The notes beneath the pieces are model-generated. The model worked only from the letters and a program-made list of their open reading frames with translations. It was not told the DNA's origin and made no database searches. Shown here one piece after another: positions 3,373 through 35,235 of a DNA stretch of 35,235 nt. Origin of the DNA: Patescibacteria group bacterium (GTDB lineage Bacteria; Patescibacteriota; Minisyncoccia; Phycocordibacterales; UBA2100); assembly GCA_038061075.1 (NCBI GenBank), contig JBBUAA010000083.1:1-35235 (forward strand), written 5' to 3'. Position 1 is the first letter of the stretch. Each line of letters starts with the position of its first letter. A program made the position numbers and the translations under genes.

Positions 3373-3420
3373 ATACCAAAGTATATATTCTGGTATAACT
3401 CTGTCAAGCGCAACTTTAAT

Positions 3421-3443
3421 CTCCGGAGGTTAAACCTCCGGAG
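3421..3443. repeat. Palindromic element CTCCGGAGGT-TAA-ACCTCCGGAG (family copy a)
   Basis: Perfect 10-bp arms with a 3-nt loop. Related copies at 15050-15095 and 32016-32030. Confidence 0.85.
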
Positions 3444-3495
3444 ATCGAACAATAGTGAATTGCCACATTTTCAGGCGGCGGGTGGTGCTTAATCG

Positions 3496-3530: not shown

Positions 3531-3824
3531 ATGAACCTACGTCAGATTTTGATATTTGAAGGCATAGTTGGTATTGGCCTTATTGCAATCATCACATATT
3601 TTGGCCTTCAGCCCCAAGACGATTCATGGGGCCCATATTGGATCATGGAGGATATAACGCTGTTCGTTCTTATGGCCGTCGTGATGTACGCAACTGTTTG
3701 GCTATCAAGACTACTTACATATGCCGGGAATCGAGGGGTATCATCGACTCAGAAACGACTAATCGGCTTTGTACTAGCCGCCGGTTTGCTTTTCGTAATG
3801 TATTACATTGTAGTAGGCTTATAA
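3531..3824 (+). CDS. Small membrane protein (about three TM helices), unknown family
   Basis: 97-aa ORF with three long hydrophobic segments, directly behind a near-consensus promoter. Confidence 0.55.
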   Translation: MNLRQILIFEGIVGIGLIAIITYFGLQPQDDSWGPYWIMEDITLFVLMAVVMYATVWLSRLLTYAGNRGVSSTQKRLIGFVLAAGLLFVMYYIVVGL

Positions 3825-10122: not shown

Positions 10123-10662
10123 ATGAATATCGCCGTCTTTTGCTCGCAGTATGATGTGGCGGAGAAATACCGGAAAGATGCCGAGACATTGGCGCGGCTC
10201 ATCGCGAAAGGGGGCCACACGCTGGTATTTGGTGGCTTCGATGAGGGGCTGATGGGAGTCATTGCGGATACCGCGCATCGGGCGGGCGGCAGGGTCGTCG
10301 GCATCATTTCAGAACGGATCAAAGACAGCGCTTACAAGCTAGCCGATGAGATGGTCGTCGTCAGGGATACGTTGGAAATGAATCGGGAACTCATCGGGCG
10401 TGGAGACGTCATCGTCGTCTTAGTCGGCGGTATCGGAACACTCAATGAATTGACAGACGTGCTCCGGATGAAGAAGAACGGCCTTCTTGACGGTACTAAG
10501 CACATTGTTATCGTGAATACGGACGGTTTCTATGAGAAATTCAAAGAACAGCTGGAGAAGATGAATGCGGAGGGATTCCTCAAGAAAGAGGTCATGGACG
10601 CAGTGCATTTTGCCGATACGCCGGAGGCCGCAATGCGGTATATTGAACACAATGGCAACTGA
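10123..10662 (+). CDS. LOG-family (TIGR00730-like) protein, putative nucleotide 5'-monophosphate nucleosidase
   Basis: 179 aa. GGFDEGLMG and VGGIGTLNE resemble the LOG GGGxGxMG / PGGxGTxxE motifs. TACAAT lies 6 nt upstream of the ATG. Confidence 0.7.
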   Translation: MNIAVFCSQYDVAEKYRKDAETLARLIAKGGHTLVFGGFDEGLMGVIADTAHRAGGRVVGIISERIKDSAYKLADEMVVVRDTLEMNRELIGRGDVIVVLVGGIGTLNELTDVLRMKKNGLLDGTKHIVIVNTDGFYEKFKEQLEKMNAEGFLKKEVMDAVHFADTPEAAMRYIEHNGN

Positions 10663-11944
10663 CGTACTCGTTATCGGCGGCGGCGGACGCGAGCATGCGC
10701 TCGCGTGGAAATTGAAACAATCGCCACGGATCGGAAAGCTCTACATCGCGCCGGGGAACGGCGGGACGCTCGCTCTTGGAGAAAACGTGCCTATCGGCGT
10801 CATGGAATTCAAGAAACTCGCCGACTTTGCTGAAGAAAAAAATATTCACCTTACGGTAGTGGGGCCGGATGACCCGCTGGCGGGAGGAATCGTCGATTTT
10901 TTCCGCGCGCGGGGATTGCGCATTTTCGGCCCCGAGTATAAAGCGGCCCAACTCGAGAGTTCGAAGTCATTTTCCAAGCAGTTGATGCGGGACGTCGGAG
11001 TGCCGACCGCCGCATTCAAGATCTTTTCATCGTATACCGCGGCATCCGCGTATGTACAGCAACATAGCCTCCCCGTCGTCATAAAGGCAAGCGGGCTCGC
11101 ACTCGGGAAAGGCGTCTATATCTGCAACACAGTAGCGGAAGCGGACGCGGTATTGCGGGCAATCATCATCGACCGGGTCCACCAAGGTGCCGGCGACGAG
11201 GTCATCGTCGAAGAGTACCTGAACGGCCCCGAAGTATCAGTCCACGCGCTTACGGACGGGTTCGCGTCGCTCTTGTTCCCGCCGTCGCAGGACCACAAGC
11301 GCGCATTGGACGGGGATCAGGGTGAGAATACCGGCGGCATGGGAGCGATAGCGCCCCTCCCATGGGTAGGGCCCCAAATGCTCTCCGATATCGAGAAGTA
11401 CGTCGTCCGCCCCGTACTCGATGCTCTGCTCGCACGCGGCATACAATTCAGCGGCCTTTTGTATCCGGGGTTGAAGATAACACCCGACGGCATCAAGGTC
11501 TTGGAGTTCAACGCCCGCTTTGGCGATCCCGAGTGTCAGGTGTACATGCGGCTCCTCAAGAGCGATATCCTTGACGCGCTGGAAGCATGTGCCGACGGGC
11601 GGCTCATCGGGAGCAACATAACCCTTGAGTGGAATAAAGGGTTTGCAGTGAACATCGTCATCGCCTCAGGCGGCTACCCGGGTGAATATAAAAAGGGTTT
11701 GCCCATCACCGGTATCGAAGAAGCGGAAAAGGTGGACGGCGTTGTCGTTTTCCACGCAGGCACAATGATTGATTTACGAAATCAATCATTGGTCACGTCG
11801 GGCGGCCGCGTCCTCGGAGTCTCTGCAGTCGGCGACACGCTGAAAGACGCACTAGACCGCGCGTACGAGGCCGTAGGCAAGATTCATTTCGAAGGCATGC
11901 ACTTCCGCCGCGACATCGGCGCGAAAGCGTTGGCACAAAAGTGA
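10652..11944 (+). CDS. purD: Phosphoribosylamine-glycine ligase
   Basis: MATDVLVIGGGGREHALAWKL..., ATP-grasp core, EFNARFGDPE. Start set at ATG 10652. The 10565 extension overlaps the LOG gene. Confidence 0.92.
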   Translation: MATDVLVIGGGGREHALAWKLKQSPRIGKLYIAPGNGGTLALGENVPIGVMEFKKLADFAEEKNIHLTVVGPDDPLAGGIVDFFRARGLRIFGPEYKAAQLESSKSFSKQLMRDVGVPTAAFKIFSSYTAASAYVQQHSLPVVIKASGLALGKGVYICNTVAEADAVLRAIIIDRVHQGAGDEVIVEEYLNGPEVSVHALTDGFASLLFPPSQDHKRALDGDQGENTGGMGAIAPLPWVGPQMLSDIEKYVVRPVLDALLARGIQFSGLLYPGLKITPDGIKVLEFNARFGDPECQVYMRLLKSDILDALEACADGRLIGSNITLEWNKGFAVNIVIASGGYPGEYKKGLPITGIEEAEKVDGVVVFHAGTMIDLRNQSLVTSGGRVLGVSAVGDTLKDALDRAYEAVGKIHFEGMHFRRDIGAKALAQK

Positions 11945-11956
11945 TATACTTTCGAG

Positions 11957-14797
11957 ATGCCTCCGACATTGGAGAAGCCGCATATTGCGGCACCCGCAAA
12001 GTTCAAATCTCCCGAGGAGGAACTTTCCTATTTGCGGCAGCGCGTCGCCGAAAAAGAGGGGGAGCTTGAGGCGGCGCACAACCGTTTTGAAAGCGACCGC
12101 ATCGCCAAGCGTGAGGTCGCTGCGTACGCCGAGGTGCCGGCGGCGACCGTACTTCACGAATCCTATGTTATGCCCGAACACGAGTCGGTGCGGCATAAGC
12201 TCCGGCTTGAGCCGGAGACGCACGACGTCCAGATGGATGAACTTCTGAAGATTGTGGTGGAGCGGGGGATAAAAAACGCGCTCGCGGTATGCGCCAAATT
12301 GAAGAACCCCCACCTTGAGGATGATTTTCACCGCATGCTCACGCGATACGTCGCCGAGGGTTTGCCGGATGCCGGCGGCGCGCCGCCGGAGCGTATCCGC
12401 CGCGCGCTCGACCTCGTACTTTTCACGGTTGATCCGCAGGCGCACGGCGAGCGCGAAAAGCAGGACAACAGCCAGCATCGTCTGGAGCAGGTACTTTCGT
12501 CGTCCGAACAGCTGTATGCGGGACTCCTCTCGTTCATCGGGAAACACGAAGGATTCTCACTGGAGATAGCGGTACCCGAAGGCACGGAAGCGGCGATCCT
12601 CTATCTTGCCGTACCGCGTCAGAAGAAAGACCTTGCCGAACGCCTCATCTCCTCGGTATTCCCCAATGCCCGTATTAATGAGGAGCGCGGCGATTACAAT
12701 ATTTTCAATTATGAAGGCGCGCATGCGGCCGCCTACGCGACATTGGCCGATACCCCCGCGTACCCCCTGAAGACGCCGGATATGTTCGAGCACGATCCCA
12801 TGAACGTGCTTTTGGCCGCATTCGCGAAAATTGCGAAGCACGGCGAGGGCGCGGCGATGCAGATAATGGTGGGGACCGAGGGCGACCGCTACAATCATCA
12901 CTACAAAAAAATGTTGCGGCGTCTCGAGAAGGGCAAGACCCTGCATAAGGCCCTCGCCGTCCCCGAGAGCGCGGTCGGGGAGATGCTCTACGACATGTCG
13001 CATATGATGCTCAAGGACGAAAAGCAAATGCAGGCCGAGAAAGACCGTGCATTCCGCCGGCAGGCCGACAAGGTCGCGGCGGAGGAGATAGAACGCAAGA
13101 TTAAGAGCAAGATCGGGCCGACCCTCATCCGCCTCGTCGCATCAGCGCCGGCGAAGGCGCGCGCCGAAGATATTCTCGGCAATCTTATCGCCCCCTTCAG
13201 CCAATACGACGACCCGAAGGGCAACCGTCTGGTATTCAAAAAGATCTCGGGCTGGAGCCTCAACAGCTTCCTGCGCGACTTCACCTACCGTATATTCGAT
13301 TCGTCCTACGCGGTCCCGCTCTCGCTCGCGGAGGTCACGGCCATCTTTCACTTCACCGCAGAGCGGGTCCACACCTCGCGTGAGCTGAAGCGCTCGTTCG
13401 CCAAGCAATCTCCCGCACCGGTCGAGATGCCGTCCGACGGCATCACACTCGGTGTGAACCGCTACGGTGCGGAGGAGCGGCCCGTCAAATTCGGCGTCGC
13501 CGACCGCCTCCGCCACTGCTATGTGATAGGGCAGACGGGTACCGGAAAGACGGGGCTGCTCAAGAATATGATCATTCAGGATATCAAGAACGGCGACGGT
13601 GTCGCCTTCGTCGATCCGCACGGCAACGACATCGAGGACATCCTTGCCGCCATCCCGCCGGAGCGCGCGAAAGACGTTATCTACTTCGATCCGGCGCATA
13701 CAGACCGCCCCATGGGTCTCAACATGCTCGAATACGACCGCACGAAGCCGGAGATGAAGACATTCGTCGTTGACGAAGTGTACGGCATCTTTCGCAAGCT
13801 TTACGCCGATGTGCCGGAGGCGTTCGGCCCGATGTTCGAACAGTACTACCGCAACGCGGTCCAGCTCGTCGTCGAGGATCCGGACTCAGGTTCGACGTTC
13901 GTCGAGATACCCCGCGTGTTCGCCGACACCGCATTCCGGAATCTGAAGCTCTCGCGGTGCAAGAATCCCATCATCGTGCAATTCTGGCGCAAGATCGCCG
14001 AACAGGCGCAGGGCGATCCCTCGCTCGAGAATGTCGCGCCCTATATCACGAGCAAATTCGACGTCTTTCTCACCAACGACATCATGCGGCCCATCGTCAG
14101 TCAGGAGAAATCCGCGTTCGACTTCCGCAGCATCATGGACGACAAGAAAATATTTCTCGCGAATCTCTCGAAGGGCCGCTTGGGCGACCGCAACACGAGT
14201 CTGCTCGGACTCATCCTCGTGTCCAAATTCCTGCAAGCCGCGTTCTCGCGCGTCGACACGCGCGGCGGCAGCCTTCCCGTCTTCTATCTCTACATCGACG
14301 AGTTCCAGAACTTCGCGACGCCGTCTATCGGCACCATCCTCTCCGAGGCCCGAAAATACAAGCTCTCGCTCGTCATCGCGCACCAATTCATCGCGCAGCT
14401 CGACGAGAAAATACGCGATGCGGTCGTGGGCAACGTCGGCACGAAGGCATCTTTCCGCGTGGGTACGACCGACGCGGAATTCCTCGCGAAACAATTCGAG
14501 CCCGTCTTCGGCCAGCAAGACCTCGAGAATCTTCCCAACCGCCATGCGGTGTGCGCGCTCCTCGTCAACGGCGTCCCCGCGCGGCCATTCTCGCTCCAGA
14601 CGGAAAACCTGCCTGCCTTCGACTTCAGCACGGTCCCCGCATTGAAGGAGCTTTCATACCGGACGTTCGGGCGCGACAGGGAAGAAGTGGAATCCGAGAT
14701 GCGCGCGAAATTCGAAGCAAGTTACGGCAAGCCCGCAGCCCCCGACCTTGGCGCCGCACTCGGCGGCCTGCCCGACCCCGCGTCGCTGTACCAGTAG
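11957..14797 (+). CDS. Large soluble TraD/VirD4/TraG-like (FtsK-HerA superfamily) ATPase with an unknown ~500-aa N-terminal region
   Basis: 946 aa. Walker A GQTGTGKTG, Walker B FYLYIDEFQNF, and SEARKYKLSLVIAHQFIAQL typical of the TraG-D C-terminal domain. No obvious N-terminal TM helices. Confidence 0.75.
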   Translation: MPPTLEKPHIAAPAKFKSPEEELSYLRQRVAEKEGELEAAHNRFESDRIAKREVAAYAEVPAATVLHESYVMPEHESVRHKLRLEPETHDVQMDELLKIVVERGIKNALAVCAKLKNPHLEDDFHRMLTRYVAEGLPDAGGAPPERIRRALDLVLFTVDPQAHGEREKQDNSQHRLEQVLSSSEQLYAGLLSFIGKHEGFSLEIAVPEGTEAAILYLAVPRQKKDLAERLISSVFPNARINEERGDYNIFNYEGAHAAAYATLADTPAYPLKTPDMFEHDPMNVLLAAFAKIAKHGEGAAMQIMVGTEGDRYNHHYKKMLRRLEKGKTLHKALAVPESAVGEMLYDMSHMMLKDEKQMQAEKDRAFRRQADKVAAEEIERKIKSKIGPTLIRLVASAPAKARAEDILGNLIAPFSQYDDPKGNRLVFKKISGWSLNSFLRDFTYRIFDSSYAVPLSLAEVTAIFHFTAERVHTSRELKRSFAKQSPAPVEMPSDGITLGVNRYGAEERPVKFGVADRLRHCYVIGQTGTGKTGLLKNMIIQDIKNGDGVAFVDPHGNDIEDILAAIPPERAKDVIYFDPAHTDRPMGLNMLEYDRTKPEMKTFVVDEVYGIFRKLYADVPEAFGPMFEQYYRNAVQLVVEDPDSGSTFVEIPRVFADTAFRNLKLSRCKNPIIVQFWRKIAEQAQGDPSLENVAPYITSKFDVFLTNDIMRPIVSQEKSAFDFRSIMDDKKIFLANLSKGRLGDRNTSLLGLILVSKFLQAAFSRVDTRGGSLPVFYLYIDEFQNFATPSIGTILSEARKYKLSLVIAHQFIAQLDEKIRDAVVGNVGTKASFRVGTTDAEFLAKQFEPVFGQQDLENLPNRHAVCALLVNGVPARPFSLQTENLPAFDFSTVPALKELSYRTFGRDREEVESEMRAKFEASYGKPAAPDLGAALGGLPDPASLYQ

Positions 14798-15049: not shown

Positions 15050-15095
15050 CTCCGGAGGTTCAACTTCTTATTACTTGGGAGGTTTAACCTCCGGA
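15050..15095. repeat. Palindromic element, family copy b (CTCCGGAGGTT...GGAGGTTTAACCTCCGGA)
   Basis: Same arms as 3421-3443 with about 20 nt extra inside. The core GGAGGT-TTA-ACCTCC at 15078-15092 is in inverted orientation. Both copies are followed by ATCG. Confidence 0.8.
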
Positions 15096-23461: not shown

Positions 23462-24907
23462 ATGCGGTACGTCTCGACCCGCGGCGGGGGTACGCCGAAG
23501 GCGTTCTTGGATATCCTGCTCGAAGGATTGGCCGCCGACGGTGGTTTGTACGTGCCGGAAGAGTATCCGCAGGTGACACCTCAAGAATTGGAGAAGATGC
23601 GCGAGATGAGCTATTCGGAACTCGCGTTCGCCATCCTCTCGAAATTCATTGACGATATTCCCGCTGCCGATTTGCGAAAGATAGTCAACGAAACATATAC
23701 GAAAGATATGTTCGGAAGTGATGACATCGTTCCTCTCAAGACACTCGAAGAGGGGCTCTACATTCTCGGCCTTTCCGAGGGTCCGACGCTCGCGTTCAAG
23801 GACATTGCACTGCAGTTGCTCGGTCGCTTGTTCGAGTATGCCCTCGAGAAAAATGGCGACACACTCACTATCTTCGGAGCGACTTCGGGCGACACGGGCT
23901 CGGCGGCGGAATACGCACTGCGGGGGAGAAAGGGGGTGCGCGTCTTTATGCTCTCGCCACATGGCCGTATGAGCGATTTCCAGAGGAAGCAGATGTATAC
24001 GCTCCAAGAGCCGAATATTTTCAACATCGCCGTTCGCGGCACCTTTGATGACTGTCAAGACATCGTGAAGCAGATGAACGCCGACGCGGAATTCAAAAAG
24101 AAGTACAAGCTCGGCGCGGTCAATTCGATAAACTGGGCGCGCATCGCGGCGCAGACGGTCTACTATTTCTACGGGTATTTCAGGGCCACGGCGTCGAACA
24201 AAGAACACGTGTCGTTCGCGGTGCCGACTGGGAATTTCGGCGACATCCTCGCAGGGTACATCGCGAAGCGCATGGGCTTGCCGGTGAAGGACCTCATCGT
24301 CGCGACCAACGAGAACAACGTGCTTGAAGAATTTTTTCGCACGGGCGTCTATCGCCCGCGAAAGGGAAGTGAAGTGGCCGCCACATCGTCCCCCTCGATG
24401 GATATATCAAAGGCGTCCAATTTCGAGCGATATGTGTTCGATCTGGTGGGGCGCGATAATGTACGGATGAACGAGCTCTGGACGGCCCTCAAAGAAAAAG
24501 GTGCGTTCGAAATATCCAAAGAGGAATTCGCGCGCCTGACGAGCGACGGATTTGTTGCCGGCTCAAGCACGCATGCCGACCGTCTCGATACCATCCGCTC
24601 CATACATGAAAAGTACGGCGTGCTTATCGACCCGCATACCGCCGACGGCGTGACGACGGGCCTTCGCCTTCGGGGAACCCACAAGTCAGACTTGTGGGTC
24701 GAGACGCTCATCTGTCTCGAGACAGCACAACCCGCGAAATTCGCCGCGACTATCCTTGAGGCCGTTGGTCGCGAGCCGGAATATCCCGCCCCGCCATCGG
24801 CGGGGCCCGCGAGCTACAAGAGCCTTACGTCACTTCCGGAGCGGTTCGAGGTGTTTGATGCGGATGTAAAATCCCTCAAAGCCTACATCGCCGCCCACGC
24901 TGCGTAG
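23462..24907 (+). CDS. thrC: Threonine synthase (long class)
   Basis: MRYVSTRGG..., GPTLAFKDIALQ (PLP lysine motif), TSGDTGSAA. Start at ATG 23462. The 23123 extension overlaps the GNAT gene. Confidence 0.9.
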   Translation: MRYVSTRGGGTPKAFLDILLEGLAADGGLYVPEEYPQVTPQELEKMREMSYSELAFAILSKFIDDIPAADLRKIVNETYTKDMFGSDDIVPLKTLEEGLYILGLSEGPTLAFKDIALQLLGRLFEYALEKNGDTLTIFGATSGDTGSAAEYALRGRKGVRVFMLSPHGRMSDFQRKQMYTLQEPNIFNIAVRGTFDDCQDIVKQMNADAEFKKKYKLGAVNSINWARIAAQTVYYFYGYFRATASNKEHVSFAVPTGNFGDILAGYIAKRMGLPVKDLIVATNENNVLEEFFRTGVYRPRKGSEVAATSSPSMDISKASNFERYVFDLVGRDNVRMNELWTALKEKGAFEISKEEFARLTSDGFVAGSSTHADRLDTIRSIHEKYGVLIDPHTADGVTTGLRLRGTHKSDLWVETLICLETAQPAKFAATILEAVGREPEYPAPPSAGPASYKSLTSLPERFEVFDADVKSLKAYIAAHAA

Positions 24908-28024: not shown

Positions 28025-28045
28025 TCTTCTATGTCGTTCTATGTC

Positions 28046-28448
28046 GGTGGAGGTGTCGGGTATCGGACCCGAGTCCAGAGAAAGATGATATGCACGTGTC
28101 TACGAAGCGTAGGTCATCTTGGTGAGACCGGGGTCTCATTTCAGATACGCATGTGTGAGATGAACAGAATCATGCGCAGCCTAGTCCCGTTCTCTTAGAT
28201 GCGGAGGGGACACTCGTGCATCAGTGCTTGAATTTTTTTACGCCCGGTCAACTCATATCAAGCATGGAGCTGACGGACGGCGCTTAGGCTACGAGAGCGT
28301 AAGCGGGCTGCAAGTCCTTCATCTGAATAGGTGAAAGAATTGCCCGTGCTACTTTGTTCGCACTTGGAATTTGAGCGGGTTTGGAGAGTCGCTCACTCTC
28401 GCAACGCGCATGCATAGACCGATTTCCCTGTCGAAGCCAGTCACCCCC
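28046..28448 (-). ncRNA. ssrA: tmRNA (transfer-messenger RNA)
   Basis: Minus strand starts GGGGGTGACTGGCTTCGACAGGGA. It ends ...TGGACTCGGGTCCGATACCCGACACCTCCACC, giving a T-arm TCGGG/CCCGA and acceptor GGGGGTG/CACCTCC with a G3:U pair. The internal tag frame ends ...QPAYALVA-TAA (stop at 28284-28286). Adjacent to smpB. Confidence 0.9.
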
Positions 28449-28571
28449 CATGTGGGATGCAGTGCATCCCACATGGGGACCGGCTGATTCCTTCGACTAT
28501 GTGTGCGCCAAGGGCGCACAAATGTTTGGAGAAACCACGTCAAAAAATGAGTATACATTTTTTGACGCAAA

Positions 28572-29165: not shown

Positions 29166-31103
29166 ATGGCAAATCCTGAAAAACAGCCGCCGCGCAAGGG
29201 GCGCGGGGGAGGCAGTGTGCCCCCCGTCTCGGGAGGCCCTTCGATCTGGGTGCAATTGGCGATGGCGTTCGCCATCTTTCTCGCGCTTTCCGCGGGGTAC
29301 TCGCTCGTGCGCCAATACATCACCACGGAGGACGAGACCGTGCCGCTCTCGCAGATAGCAGCCGACATCAATGAGGGCAAGATCGCTTCGATAACGGTCG
29401 GGGGCGATTCCATCACCGCGACGTACACGGACGAGAGCGTGAAAAAATCGCGCAAAGAAGTCGAAGCTTCGCTCACGGAGACGCTCGCCAATTACGATAT
29501 CGCTTCGGAGAGGATCAACGCGGTGAAGATCGAGATAGAGGATGAGGGGGGAGCGCGCTTCTGGTTTTTGACGCTCGCGCCGCTCTTAGTGCCGGTCTTG
29601 CTCCTCTTCGGCATCATCTGGTATCTCTCGCGGCAGATGAAAGGTGCGGGCATGCAGGCATTCACCTTCGGTAAATCGATGGCGCGGCTCATCTCGCCGG
29701 AGGACCAGCTGCAAAAGGTCACCTTTGCGGATGTCGCGGGCGCGAAGGAGGCGAAACAAGAACTCCTCGAAATCGTCGACTTCCTGAAGAATCCCAAGAA
29801 ATTCATCCAGATAGGCGCGCGCATTCCGAAAGGTGTCTTGCTGATGGGCGCGGCGGGGACGGGGAAGACCTTGCTCGCGCGCGCGGTCGCGGGTGAAGCG
29901 GGCGTACCCTTCTTCTCGATATCGGGTTCTGAATTCGTCGAGATGTTCGTCGGCGTCGGCGCTTCGCGCGTGCGCGACCTTTTCCAGACGGCCAAGAAAG
30001 CCGCGCCCGCGATAGTCTTTGTCGACGAGATAGACGCGGTGGGGCGCGTGCGCGGGAGCGGGGTGGGCGGCGGCAACGATGAGCGCGAGCAGACCCTCAA
30101 TCAGATACTCGTCGAGATGGACGGCTTCGAGCCCAATGAAAAAGTCATCGTCATGGCGGCGACCAACCGCCCCGACGTGCTCGACCCCGCGCTTGTGCGG
30201 CCGGGCCGCTTCGACCGCCGCGTCGTCATCGATTTGCCCGACCGCAAAGACCGCGAGGATATTTTGAAAGTGCACGCGCGTCAGAAGCCGCTCGGTCCCG
30301 ACATACAGCTCGCCGTCATCGCGGAGAGGACGCCGGGGTTCTCGGGCGCAGACCTCGCAAATCTTATGAACGAAGCCGCCATACTTGCCGCGCGTGAAGA
30401 CCGCAAAGAAATCGCGCAGTACGACCTCATCCGCTCGATAGAAAAAGTGATGCTCGGGCCCGAACGCCAGAGCCACATCCTCAACAAAAAAGAGAAGGAG
30501 ATCACCGCATACCACGAAGCGGGCCACGCGCTCGTCTCATCGGTCTTGCCGTATGCCGATCCCGTACACAAGGTCTCCATCATCTCGCGCGGCCGCGCGG
30601 CGGGCTACACGCTCAAATTGCCTTTCGAAGACCGCAAGATGCAGTCGCGCAAAGAATTCCTCGACGACATCGCGGTCAGTCTCGGCGGCTACATCGCCGA
30701 GAAGATGATATTCGACGACATCACGACCGGCGCATCCAACGACCTGCAGGTACTGACCGCGCTCGCGCGCGACATGGTCACGCGCTACGGCATGTCGGAC
30801 AAAATGGGGCCCATTGCATTCGATGCGGCGCTAGGGAAGGCGATGTTCGGGCAGGGCGTGGAAGGCGGCGAGCAATCCGAAGAAGTCGCGGGGCAGATAG
30901 ATGCGGAGGTCAAGAAAATAATCGAAGGCGCGCACAAGAGGGCGGAAGGCGTGATACGGAAGCACCGCAAGGTCTTGGACGCGATTGCGCAGAGATTGGT
31001 GGAAGTGGAAACGCTTGAGCGCGACGAATTCGAGAAAATCCTCATCGCCAACGGCGTCACGCCCAAAAAGAAGGAAGACATCGAACACGCTCCGTTGGCG
31101 TAG
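29166..31103 (+). CDS. ftsH: ATP-dependent zinc metalloprotease FtsH
   Basis: 645 aa. Two N-terminal TMs, GAAGTGKT Walker [10 protein letters not shown] Walker B, HEAGHA zinc motif. Confidence 0.97.
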
Positions 31104-32222
31104 CTAGTTTTGTATTTGCCAGTGAATGGTCTCGCTGCCGGAGCCGTGTACCGTGTTGCAGATGGGCCACACCTTGTCGCCTTCGTCGGTCACGACGGGC
31201 TCGGTCACCTGCCAATCTTTTTTCATCAGCGTAATTGTTTTGCTGCTCGGTTCGAGTCCGTAGAAGCGCGGGCCGTTGACGGAGAGAAAGTTCTCAAGTT
31301 TGTCGAGTGCACCGAGCTCTTCAAACACTTGTGTGTAGAGTTCGACCGCGGCCGGCGCACTGAAAATACCGAACGCGCCGGTAGGAGAAAGTTTTTTTGC
31401 TTCAGGATGCGGGGCGGAATCCGTTCCCGCGAAAACGAACGGCAGGCCTTTCGCAACGAGCGCTCGCACCGCATTCTTACTTTTCTCATCCTTGATCAAA
31501 GGCTTCACCTTGAGGAGGGGATTGGATTCCGCCTCATGTCTCCCGTAGAGCAGGTGATGCGGCGTGACGGTGGCGACGAGCCGCCCCGCCTCGCCGTTCT
31601 TCTCGATGAACGCAGCCGCATTCTCCGAGCTTAGGTGTTCAAGCGAAACTTTGAGCTTCGGATACGTGTCCAGTAGCCGCGGCAGGACGTCGGTGATGAA
31701 AAGCCGCTCGCCGTCGTACGGGTCCTCTTCCTCGTCGTCCTCATTCAAATGCACTTCGCCGTGAAGCAGGAGCGGCATGCCGACTTCCTCCATTTTTTTC
31801 AACACGTTCGCCGCTTCAAGAATACTGCGATACCCCCACTGCGAATTGGTCGTCGCACCGTACGGATAGGATTTCACGGCGGATATTTTGCACACATCAC
31901 CCGCGATGCCTTTCTCTATTTCGGCGGGCGTCAGGTTCTTTGTAAGATACAAAGTCATCAACGGCTCAAATCCCGAAACCCGTAAGGCGTCGCCTTGCGG
32001 GTTTCGGGATTCTGCGGAGGTTAAACCTCCACACGCGGCGAGGATCTCTTTTTTGTACTCCGCCGCTTGCTCCACCGTCTCTATCGGCGGTTCGGTATTG
32101 GGCATGATGATGGCGCGCCCGAATTCCGCCGCCGTAAGGGGCGTCACCGCCCGCAACATTGCCCCGCGGCGCAGATGCACGTGCGCATCAAAGGGTTTTT
32201 TAAGGGTGATAGTTTTCGACAT
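31104..32222 (-). CDS. pyrC: Dihydroorotase (E. coli PyrC-like class) carrying a 20-codon palindromic insertion
   Basis: DAHVHLR..., IMPNT, LHGEV, AGTDSAPH metal-ligand motifs. TATACT lies 7 nt upstream of the ATG. Confidence 0.9.
   Translation of the reverse strand: MSKTITLKKPFDAHVHLRRGAMLRAVTPLTAAEFGRAIIMPNTEPPIETVEQAAEYKKEILAACGGLTSAESRNPQGDALRVSGFEPLMTLYLTKNLTPAEIEKGIAGDVCKISAVKSYPYGATTNSQWGYRSILEAANVLKKMEEVGMPLLLHGEVHLNEDDEEEDPYDGERLFITDVLPRLLDTYPKLKVSLEHLSSENAAAFIEKNGEAGRLVATVTPHHLLYGRHEAESNPLLKVKPLIKDEKSKNAVRALVAKGLPFVFAGTDSAPHPEAKKLSPTGAFGIFSAPAAVELYTQVFEELGALDKLENFLSVNGPRFYGLEPSSKTITLMKKDWQVTEPVVTDEGDKVWPICNTVHGSGSETIHWQIQN
31971..32030. repeat. Composite palindromic element inside pyrC (39-nt palindrome plus GGAGGT-TAA-ACCTCC)
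   Basis: 31971-32009 is TCCCGAAACCCGTAAGGCG-T-CGCCTTGCGGGTTTCGGGA (19-bp arms, one mismatch). 32016-32030 is GGAGGTTAAACCTCC. Together they are exactly codons 65-84 (GGLTSAESRNPQGDALRVSG). Confidence 0.85.
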
Positions 32223-32229
32223 CCCCGCA

Positions 32230-32259
32230 AGTATACAACAGCCGCGTCGGTGTTATACT
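32230..32259. promoter_or_regulatory. Back-to-back leaderless promoters for pyrC (-) and pyrB (+)
   Basis: TATACT on the minus strand (32230-32235) lies 7 nt from the pyrC ATG. TATACT on the plus strand (32254-32259) lies 6 nt from the pyrB ATG. The intergenic region is only 43 nt. Confidence 0.55.
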
Positions 32260-32265
32260 TTCCCG

Positions 32266-33180
32266 ATGCAACATCTCATCGAGACCCAACAGTTCGACCG
32301 CGAAGCGCTTAACAAGCTTTTTGAACTTGCGACATCGTTGGAAGGAAAGCGTGATGAGTCGCTCAACGGCAAAATACTCGCCTCGCTTTTTTTCGCGCCC
32401 TCCACGCGTACGCGCCTCTCGTTCGAATCGGCAATGTACCGCCTCGGCGGGCATGTGATTTCGGCGGAGAACGCGAACGAAACCTCCTCGTCGACGAAAG
32501 GGGAAACAATCGAGGACACTATTCGTATTGTTGATAATTATGCCGACATCATCGTCTTACGTCATTCCGACGTCGGGACCGCTGCACGTGCGGCCGCTGT
32601 TTCTGAAGTACCGATAATCAATGCGGGAGACGGCATCGGACAGCATCCGACCCAGGCCTTTCTTGATCTGTATACGATACAGCGCGAGATTGGCCGGACA
32701 GACGATTTCCACATCGCGTTTGTCGGGAATCTCGCGTACTACCGCAGCGCACGGTCGCTTGCGTACCTGCTCGGCAAATATAAAAACGTCAAAATGACGT
32801 TTGTTGCCGCGCCCGAGTTGCGGATGAAGGACGATGTAAAAGACCACCTTACTGAAAACAGCGTACAGTTTGAGGAAACGGAAGATTTGGATGACGCGAT
32901 GCGGACAGCCGACGTGGTATACCAGACGCGCATGGCGGAAGAATGGATTCCGGACCACGACCAGTACGAGAAGTTACGGGGCAAATACATCATCACAAGA
33001 CCGATGGCGGACACCATGAAAGATGGCGCGATACTCATTCATCCGTTGCCGCGCGCGGGCGAGATTGCCGTCGACGTGGATGATTCGCCGCACGCAGTCT
33101 ATTTCAGGCAAGCGGGATACGGCGTTTTGGTGCGCATGGCGCTCCTGAAGACGCTTTTGGCTGGGGAATCGACGTCTTGA
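32266..33180 (+). CDS. pyrB: Aspartate carbamoyltransferase catalytic subunit
   Basis: FFAPSTRTRLSFE, HPTQAFLD, HPLPR motifs. Start at ATG 32266. The 31888 extension is antisense to pyrC. Confidence 0.93.
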   Translation: MQHLIETQQFDREALNKLFELATSLEGKRDESLNGKILASLFFAPSTRTRLSFESAMYRLGGHVISAENANETSSSTKGETIEDTIRIVDNYADIIVLRHSDVGTAARAAAVSEVPIINAGDGIGQHPTQAFLDLYTIQREIGRTDDFHIAFVGNLAYYRSARSLAYLLGKYKNVKMTFVAAPELRMKDDVKDHLTENSVQFEETEDLDDAMRTADVVYQTRMAEEWIPDHDQYEKLRGKYIITRPMADTMKDGAILIHPLPRAGEIAVDVDDSPHAVYFRQAGYGVLVRMALLKTLLAGESTS

Positions 33181-35103: not shown

Positions 35104-35175
35104 CCGCCGATAGCTCAATGGTAGAGCAGTCGCCTTATACGCGATTGGTTGGGGGTTCGAGTCCCTCTCGGCGGA
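35104..35175 (+). tRNA. tRNA with anticodon UAU (reads AUA, isoleucine)
   Basis: Cloverleaf folded by hand. Acceptor CCGCCGA/TCGGCGG, D-arm GCTC-AATGGTA-GAGC. Anticodon arm GTCGC-CTTATAC-GCGAT with anticodon TAT at 35136-35138. 5-nt variable loop, T-arm GGGGG-TTCGAGT-CCCTC, discriminator A. CCA is not encoded. Confidence 0.8.
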
Positions 35176-35235
35176 CAGACATGAAGAAGGGTGGGGATTC
35201 GCGTGTTGCGTCATTTTTCACGCGTGCCACAATGC

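Follow-up and report, generated by a model that had tools for sequence, protein, structure and literature searches.

Miniature palindromes in frame in the dihydroorotase gene of a Kaiserbacteria-like bacterium: probable members of a REP/RAYT-type mobile system

The elements closest to those presented here are the repetitive extragenic palindromes (REPs) and their REP-associated tyrosine transposases (RAYTs). REP/RAYT "REPtrons" have already been described, as well as intragenic REPs which are inserted in frame (Di Nocera et al. 2013, PMC3733652). The same work reports different REPs near one site of one gene in related species, recB of Xanthomonas, and it classes the Rickettsia elements RPE-4 and RPE-6 as CGTC REPs "without dedicated transposase". 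Our search of the literature gave no relevant paper on RAYT/REPIN or on palindromic in-frame elements in the candidate phyla radiation (CPR). We have studied a stretch of 35,235 nt (the window, contig JBBUAA010000083.1) from a Kaiserbacteria-like Patescibacterium, an uncultured and ultra-small member of the CPR. Inside its pyrC gene, which codes for dihydroorotase, there are two adjacent palindromes which are read in frame. We consider it probable that they belong to a REP/RAYT-type mobile palindrome system of this CPR bacterium, with frequent translated intragenic copies. The gene and its insert are organized as follows:

31104 to 32222, minus strand: pyrC, type II dihydroorotase of 372 aa, with an intact open reading frame (ORF).
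31969 to 32011, unstranded: palindrome of 43 nt, a REP-like element of family B (described below), with arms of 21 nt each at 31969–31989 and 31991–32011.
32012 to 32015, unstranded: linker CTGC, 4 nt, which separates both palindromes as read from the sequence.
32016 to 32030, unstranded: palindrome of 15 nt, GGAGGTT-A-AACCTCC, with peptide GGLTS, a dispersed short repeat.

On the minus strand positions 31971–32030 correspond to codons 65–84 of pyrC and give GGLTSAESRNPQGDALRVSG, within the intact frame of 372 aa. A preliminary description, made from the sequence alone, had already recognized the in-frame pair of palindromes. It gave the larger one as near-perfect with one mismatch, which is correct, but its size is 43 nt with 21-nt arms instead of 39 nt with 19-nt arms. 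The two palindromes do encode these codons, but not entirely, as it had stated: the CTGC linker lies between them. The 43-mer has one central base and its mismatch is a T at 31983 opposite a G at 31997. It is formed by a family-B core at 31975–32005, GAAACCCGYAAGGCG-N-CGCCTTGCGGGTTTC, and a 6-nt palindromic outer extension AATCCC/GGGATT. In the pyrC frame its peptide is (E)SRNPQGDALRVSG(F). As read from the sequence, the mismatch at 31983 is a synonymous TTG>TTA change with respect to the family consensus, which fits a fairly recent copy that is drifting under protein-level constraint. Chance does not account for either palindrome: in 100 dinucleotide-preserving shuffles the 43-mer has an expectation of 0.00, and the 15-mer has 6 strand-matches at three sites of the window, against 0.03 expected in shuffles. 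Folding of the insert gives z-scores of -7.9 (plus strand) and -5.6 (minus strand).

The host gene is an E. coli-type (type II) dihydroorotase by homology and by fold. Sequence matches to dihydroorotases in the PDB have E ~1e-70 and all the conserved motifs of the enzyme are kept. The AlphaFold2 model has a predicted local distance difference test (pLDDT) of 86.8, and Foldseek gives TM values of 0.86 and 0.92 to the E. coli enzyme (1J79 and 3MJM). In a HMMER alignment the insert adds 15 residues relative to the dihydroorotase of Burkholderia 4LFY (ILAAL----------PAG-----MTFEPLMT); with the comparison of 120 orthologs this confirms the earlier estimate, made against E. coli PyrC, of about 15 additional residues. 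The model places the insert in a loop of low confidence, probably at the surface, and agrees with the loop position given before: its residues (about 61–84) have a pLDDT of 59–69 and lie between helix 50–69 and strand 86–92, while the fold is otherwise confident. The insert is presumably translated as part of PyrC and near-neutral.

In 78 of the 120 best orthologs the loop is E. coli-like and has only six residues, "VPxGxx". The other 42 have longer and heterogeneous loops: "SxxLQNxRI" (family A) in 24 cases, "QGDAL" (family B) in nine, "YGSQTAV" in two and other sequences in the rest. At the DNA level we compared the pyrC loci of 22 relatives with the window, 23 genomes in total (loci and proteins are cited by our L and P numbers). 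Every long loop in the related loci is a perfect or near-perfect DNA palindrome; they all lie at one position and their sequences differ. Palindromes with arms of at least 12 nt are found exactly at the pyrC site in 11 of the 23 genomes. Some of them are:

L014, pyrC site: palindrome TCTTATTCCAGTGTTTTG/CAAAACACTGGAATAAGA.
L020, pyrC site: palindrome GGACATTCCAACATTCTG/CAGAATGTTGGAATGTCC.
L021 and L025, pyrC site: palindrome AATACGGCAGTC-A-GACTGCCGTATT.
L028, pyrC site: palindrome CGGTTAGTCTGACTAACC-A-GGTTAGTCAGACTAACCG.
L030, pyrC site: palindrome AAACCATCAAGGCG-T-CGCCTTGATGGTTT.

Three different states of this site are found among PyrCs which are about 90% identical. It is empty (VPKGTL) in the 357-aa proteins P0243–245 (DNA: L145), which are members of the 90%-identity cluster of the window protein. 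It has a family-A palindrome (YSSVLQNTRI) in P0002/L091, 88–90% identical to the window PyrC, and the 15-mer with family B in the window itself. These three states indicate recent and repeated events at one site, a recurrent hot spot and not one old insertion; the insertion is indeed lineage-specific, as had been proposed. A single ancient insertion, inherited vertically, was considered and rejected: a neighbour-joining tree with the loop masked explains the 42 inserted tips with 32 state changes, where shuffled tips need 39 on average. Since this tree is weakly resolved, we rely instead on the three states of the closely related proteins.

The 43-mer is a member of a dispersed repeat, family B, with the pattern AAACC[CG/AG/AT]CAAGGCG-N-CGCCTTG..GGTTT. 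Its core equals the pyrC palindromes of L092 and L030 save for paired, compensating differences (CCCG/CGGG, CCAG/CTGG, CCAT/ATGG), and it aligns with family-B copies in other genes and in the flanks of a RAYT-like gene. We scanned JGI metagenome contigs (groundwater metagenomes) with the exact pattern AACCNNCAAGGCGNCGCCTTRNNGGTT. The 42 metagenome stretches with a match contain 49 sites, of which 43 are unique. Palindromy is perfect at every one of the 49, including the four positions which are free in the pattern. Many sites are intergenic: they are GC-rich hairpins with flanking runs of A and T, AAAAACCCGCAAGGCGACGCCTTGCGGGTTTTT, and resemble bidirectional terminators. The identity of sequence over dozens of sites indicates common descent rather than convergence on terminators.

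Seventeen of the 43 unique sites are found within ORFs of at least 250 aa. From a reading of their sequences, the host ORFs include MurD, RecR, PheT (at two positions), Fmt, PurH, TsaD, ValS and GuaA, and also a helicase, a glycosyltransferase and a reverse transcriptase. The frame of the pyrC copy, N-[P/Q/H]-Q-G-x-A-L-[R/L/M]-V, is shared by 16 of these 17 copies, against one third expected by chance. All three frames of family B are open, and yet one is used almost always, so that the bias points to selection on the translated peptide. In L121 and L124 the tsaD gene has a family-B insert (KNPQGDALRVF) together with a family-A insert (HSSILQNTSM / YSSILKNVGM), which shows that family A is also dispersed beyond pyrC. 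In about 49 kb of the window's genome family B is present as one pyrC copy, two copies which flank a transposase gene and one half-copy. A genome-specific variant of family B was also considered: contigs with several copies are internally uniform, but the window's genome has both a CG variant (pyrC) and an AT variant (transposase), and we rejected this possibility.

In several metagenome loci (L118/L099, L096/L108, L106, L116 and L135) two family-B copies, about 745 nt apart, lie on both sides of an ORF of about 235 aa with a "CLMPNHFHLL" (HUH) motif. This ORF matches Pfam Y1_Tnp (IS200-like) with 33–35 bits, for a gathering score of 23, and NCBIfam NF047646, "REP-associated tyrosine transposase" (REP_Tyr_transpos), with E ~1e-9 and 35–38 bits. 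Its homologs number about 2,500 at E <= 1e-10; those with a name are called "transposase" in metagenome-assembled genomes (MAGs) of Kaiserbacteria, Paceibacterota and Parcubacteria. PDB sequence searches with a single sequence and with a profile gave no match; only the fold search gave one. The best match of the AlphaFold2 model (pLDDT 90.7) is 4ER8, the E. coli RAYT bound to a REP hairpin, with E 1.2e-6; the TnpA of ISDra2 and of IS608 follow at E ~1e-3. A homolog is present in the window's own genome. The window's contig was matched to CAYIVO010000001.1 of assembly GCA_964366895.1, and CAYIVO010000002.1 of the same assembly codes for P0124, which is 80% identical to this ORF. More distant RAYT-like paralogs have other palindromes on both sides:

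L140, 3001–3696: P0124 gene, with family-B palindromes at 2965–2989 and 3702–3730; the flanking sequences are AACATCAAGGCG-T-CGCCTTGATGGT and AAACCATCAAGGCG-T-CGCCTTGATGGTTT, and there is a half copy of the CG variant at L140 2932.
L101: distant RAYT-like paralog, flanked on both sides by AACCCACAAGTC-A-GACTTGTGGGTT, which is family K as in thrC of the window (see below).
L099: distant RAYT-like paralog, flanked on both sides by AAATTGGACGTC-G-GACGTCCAATTT.
L109: distant RAYT-like paralog, flanked on both sides by GTCCAAGGG..CCCTTGGAC.

No RAYT-like ORF was found at 10 kb or less from pyrC in 21 relatives, nor in the window.

We propose that the 60-nt segment of pyrC combines, in a small cluster, two miniature palindromic mobile elements, which would have landed or been exchanged in a permissive loop of the enzyme. 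The presumed mobilizer of family B would be the RAYT-like Y1/HUH single-strand DNA transposase, which family-B copies bracket in a REPtron-like manner. By analogy with the E. coli RAYT and IS200/IS605, this enzyme would bind the hairpin of the palindrome in single-stranded DNA, cut and rejoin beside it and thus spread copies; mobility of family B driven by RAYT is what we infer from this likeness. Intragenic copies would persist only if the frame is kept, in the loop-friendly frame given above, and if the loop is tolerant. The loop after "YKKEILAA" in pyrC would be such a tolerant place, struck repeatedly by different palindrome families across lineages.

The system would be of a known kind, REP/RAYT with intragenic REPs, from which it differs by the perfect symmetry of the palindromes, a divergent and longer transposase, the high intragenic share and the CPR host. 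As in REP/RAYT systems, the palindromes are short (27–43 nt), GC-rich and dispersed over many loci, and each of the several transposase paralogs is paired with a repeat family of its own. Part of the copies are intragenic and in frame, and differing palindromes are found at about one site in related genomes. The best structural match of the transposase is a RAYT–REP complex. The Y1/HUH transposase gene bracketed by cognate palindrome copies has the architecture of a REPtron, and intragenic REPs are a described exception to the extragenic location (PMC3733652). Here the exception is frequent, as it applies to 17 of the 43 unique family-B sites, with a strict frame preference. The transposase differs from known RAYTs by its length (about 231–241 aa), by a helical extension at its C-terminus and by a score below the NCBIfam RAYT cutoff. 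The host, a Kaiserbacteria-like CPR bacterium, also differs from those for which the literature we searched describes REP/RAYT systems.

Several points weigh against an assignment to REP/RAYT. The palindromes are perfect and symmetric; they have neither a terminal GTAG/CGTC tag nor the typical bulges of REPs. CGTC/GACG is only found at their apex (GGCG-T/A-CGCC), and the flanks of the copies are A/T-rich and variable. The transposase reaches 38 bits, whereas the NCBIfam RAYT cutoff is 80, and it has 15% identity to 4ER8. The pyrC copy is a CG variant, while the copies which flank the transposase gene of the same genome are AT variants, and the count of family-B copies in this genome covers those 49 kb only. 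No transposase link was found for the 15-mer. Furthermore, the spread of REPs by RAYTs is unsettled even for E. coli.

The pyrC site itself also presents difficulties. A comparison of the filled and empty sites does not give a clean insertion, since the adjoining codons differ too. The nearest empty site (L145) is itself a small palindrome, GTCCCC-AA-GGGGAC, which the outer extension AATCCC/GGGATT resembles; this likeness suggests that the element went into the apex of a hairpin which was already there. On the other hand, 13 empty orthologous sites have no excess of hairpins when compared with a randomization of synonymous codons (P=0.19 for summed stems, P=0.63 for summed minimum free energy). 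Mere permissiveness would predict many such loops and does not account for the frequent targeting of the one in pyrC.

The Rickettsia palindromic elements (RPEs), reportedly described by Ogata et al. in 2000 and 2002, offer another comparison, which the preliminary description had made. The elements behave like RPEs in several respects: they are palindromic repeats in frame in housekeeping genes of a small-genome bacterium, apparently tolerated in surface loops and presumably translated. RPE-1 has about 100–150 bp, whereas the elements found here have 15–43 nt; the lineage is another one and there is a candidate transposase. The likeness in function is thus maintained, but not the membership in an RPE family, as family B flanks a RAYT-like gene of the same genome. 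Our best reading is to group the elements with REP/RAYT, set apart from the families RPE-1 to RPE-8 by length, lineage and transposase.

The IS200/IS605 insertion sequences are a further relative. Their TnpA enzymes recognize single-stranded DNA hairpins, and the transposase found here has the same Pfam family (Y1_Tnp) and fold, as the matches to ISDra2 and IS608 indicate. However its flanks are identical short perfect palindromes and not distinct left and right ends, small palindromes are dispersed alone without the gene, and the enzyme is structurally nearer to RAYT (E 1e-6) than to TnpA (~1e-3).

The hairpins might also be kept at the pyrC site by selection, because they play some role at the RNA or DNA level; they could be intragenic terminators or insulators of antisense transcription, possibly as a secondary exaptation. 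The orientation of the genes gives some reason for this idea: pyrC is inverted between ftsH and pyrB, so that read-through from ftsH runs antisense through pyrC into pyrB. Read on the antisense strand, the conserved "YKKEI" codons form a natural T-run, and in three of 23 orthologs (L011, L013 and L030) this strand has a canonical GC-rich hairpin directly followed by a T-run. In the antisense RNA the only mismatch of the window's palindrome is a G-U pair, and the typical intergenic copies of family B resemble terminators, as we have seen. Nevertheless a terminator scan was negative at 31969–32030 on both strands. The pyrC copy has no U-tract on either strand, and the closest T-run is 16 nt past the second hairpin. 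The long inserts of L014, L020, L023 and L028 have no ensuing T-runs either. The 13 empty sites show no hairpin excess, the same elements are found in many unrelated genes, and the symmetry of the palindromes extends right to the centre, more than an RNA hairpin requires. We consider this explanation unlikely as the origin of the insert.

A local origin of the palindromes de novo is still less probable. In this scenario a small seed palindrome in a tolerant loop would give rise to them through template switching or fold-back replication, with neither a mobile element nor a transposase. The perfection of the palindromes to the centre would be expected in this case, and palindromy often exceeds the family core, as in AATCCC/GGGATT of the window and TACCATT/AATGGTA of L135. 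The small palindrome at the nearest empty site could be such a seed, and the loops of L011 and L013 have become palindromic at unchanged length. Against this stands the presence of the same 27–31-nt sequence at 43 unrelated sites and in the flanks of transposase genes. One genome, L021, has one element in two genes, and the family-B arms match the consensus of the dispersed family. Such identity across genes and genomes cannot be explained by a local origin of family B, which may nevertheless contribute to the outer extensions. Finally, it is extremely improbable that the insert is a chimeric inverted repeat produced by assembly or amplification, or that it belongs to a pseudogene. Multiple displacement amplification or assembly chimeras can yield palindromes, and a number of Logan contigs stop shortly upstream of pyrC. 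However, 15 contigs of independent samples (NCBI, ENA and several Logan runs) carry the identical 372-aa protein, which excludes an assembly artefact. Moreover the ORF is intact, in frame and keeps all its conserved motifs, and related inserts appear in many independent assemblies.

A mobile REP/RAYT-type system remains therefore our preferred reading, and we turn to the other palindromes of this genome. Perfect palindromes with arms of at least 9 nt are found 11 times in 42 kb of the window's genome, where 0.9 are expected; in-frame palindromes are general in these genomes. Both palindromes of pyrC have further copies, family B in metagenomes and beside the transposase gene, the 15-mer GGAGGTTWAACCTCC in the 35-kb window, where two of its three copies are intergenic. 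These two had been noticed before, with the approximate positions 3421 and 15050; they are found at 3425–3439 and 15078–15092. The 15-mer is absent from the loci of the 22 relatives and was seen, among those sampled, only in the window's genome. A scan of viral contigs with the extended 15-mer gave one match, in an unrelated CTCCGG-rich repeat, which is uninformative. The features of the window outside pyrC are:

3419 to 3445, unstranded: intergenic copy of the 15-mer at 3425–3439, within an extended palindrome ATCTCCGGAGGTT-A-AACCTCCGGAGAT.
15051 to 15095, unstranded: intergenic copy of the 15-mer at 15078–15092, with a degenerate partner at 15051–15067.
24677 to 24699, unstranded: family-K palindrome ACCCACAAGTC-A-GACTTGTGGGT, 23 nt, perfect and in frame in thrC, with peptide "THKSDLWV".

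The thrC gene (23462..24907, plus strand) gains six residues by its family-K insert with respect to five orthologs. It also has an additional segment "PAPPSAG" close to its C-terminus. Beyond the window, recG of the same genome has a palindrome TCCGAAGTC-A-GACTTCGGA (L001 3717–3755) at a site which is variable in the relatives. The recG loop is a palindrome hot spot of its own, with a pyrC-type element in L021 (4129–4155) and a 42-nt palindrome in L025 (2690–2731). In L021 one palindrome of 25–27 nt is found in both pyrC and recG, with the peptide YGSQT[A/T]VF in each. Another small in-frame repeat family is a double mini-hairpin, TCCGCC-AAA-GGCGGA-TCCGCC-TCC-GGCGGA ("KGGSASGG"), which appears twice in one recG (L017 468–506 and 1296–1334) and also in thrC of L030. 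The recG of L028 (957–3792) has several short inserts and an inserted segment of about 130 aa, which by eye resembles a GxxExxY/PD-(D/E)XK-type protein. In purD (10565..11944, plus strand) there is a perfect palindrome CAATGATTGATTT-ACG-AAATCAATCATTG with 13-nt arms at 11763–11791 and peptide "GTMIDLRNQSLV"; we take it to be without obvious change of length with respect to E. coli PurD. Its ACG loop recurs in palindromes at 14453–14479 and in L018 15852–15880.

As for the gene neighbourhood, PyrC is identical to the NCBI entry "MAG: dihydroorotase [Patescibacteria group bacterium]" and its nearest named relatives are Candidatus Kaiserbacteria. The pyrC gene is the lone minus-strand gene between ftsH and pyrB, both on the plus strand (region 29166–33180). 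The stop of ftsH at 31103 abuts the stop of pyrC with a spacer of 0 nt, and pyrB starts at 32267, 44 nt from the start of pyrC. These junctions leave no space for terminators and scarcely any for promoters; a promoter-like site for pyrB is found at 32232–32259. Several independent short-read contigs (L002, L006–L010) stop 37–136 nt upstream of pyrC, which suggests strain heterogeneity or a repeat at the pyrC–pyrB junction. An Rfam scan of the window only found transfer-messenger RNA (tmRNA) and one tRNA, with no match at the pyrC insert. A perfect palindrome of 33 nt, CCCCATGTGGGATGCA-G-TGCATCCCACATGGGG, at 28446–28478 abuts the 5' end of the tmRNA gene (28045–28448, minus strand) with an overlap of 3 nt. 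ARAGORN gives a tRNA-Ile with anticodon UAU at 35104–35176. This anticodon is an uncommon bacterial means of reading AUA and may be linked to a loss of tilS in the host lineage.

A more far-reaching proposal, which we only put forward tentatively, is that Kaiserbacteria-like CPR bacteria have a divergent RAYT/REP system whose perfect palindromes prefer hairpin-prone or permissive codons of essential genes and are exchanged between families. In this context the loops of pyrC and recG might be targeted site-specifically, in a homing-like manner. If the proposal is true, such a system would be one of the main sources from which the lineage-specific loop insertions typical of CPR proteins have come, and some intragenic copies might be exapted, for example as antisense terminators, given that there is almost no intergenic space.

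Palindromic inserts of this kind can mislead homology-based annotation and the trimming of alignments, and they mark recent strain divergence. The empty, family A and family B states form a natural allelic series at one site, which may be used to study the choice of targets. Our results would extend the REP/RAYT paradigm, known mainly from Proteobacteria, to a deep uncultured lineage. There the palindromic elements that sit in permissive loops of essential enzymes turn over between close relatives. The genomes of CPR/Patescibacteria are tiny and contain very little intergenic DNA, and their proteins and rRNAs are known for unexplained extra segments. Miniature palindromes, together with Y1 transposases which are predicted to bind their hairpins, offer a concrete and testable mechanism for some of the protein insertions of these bacteria.

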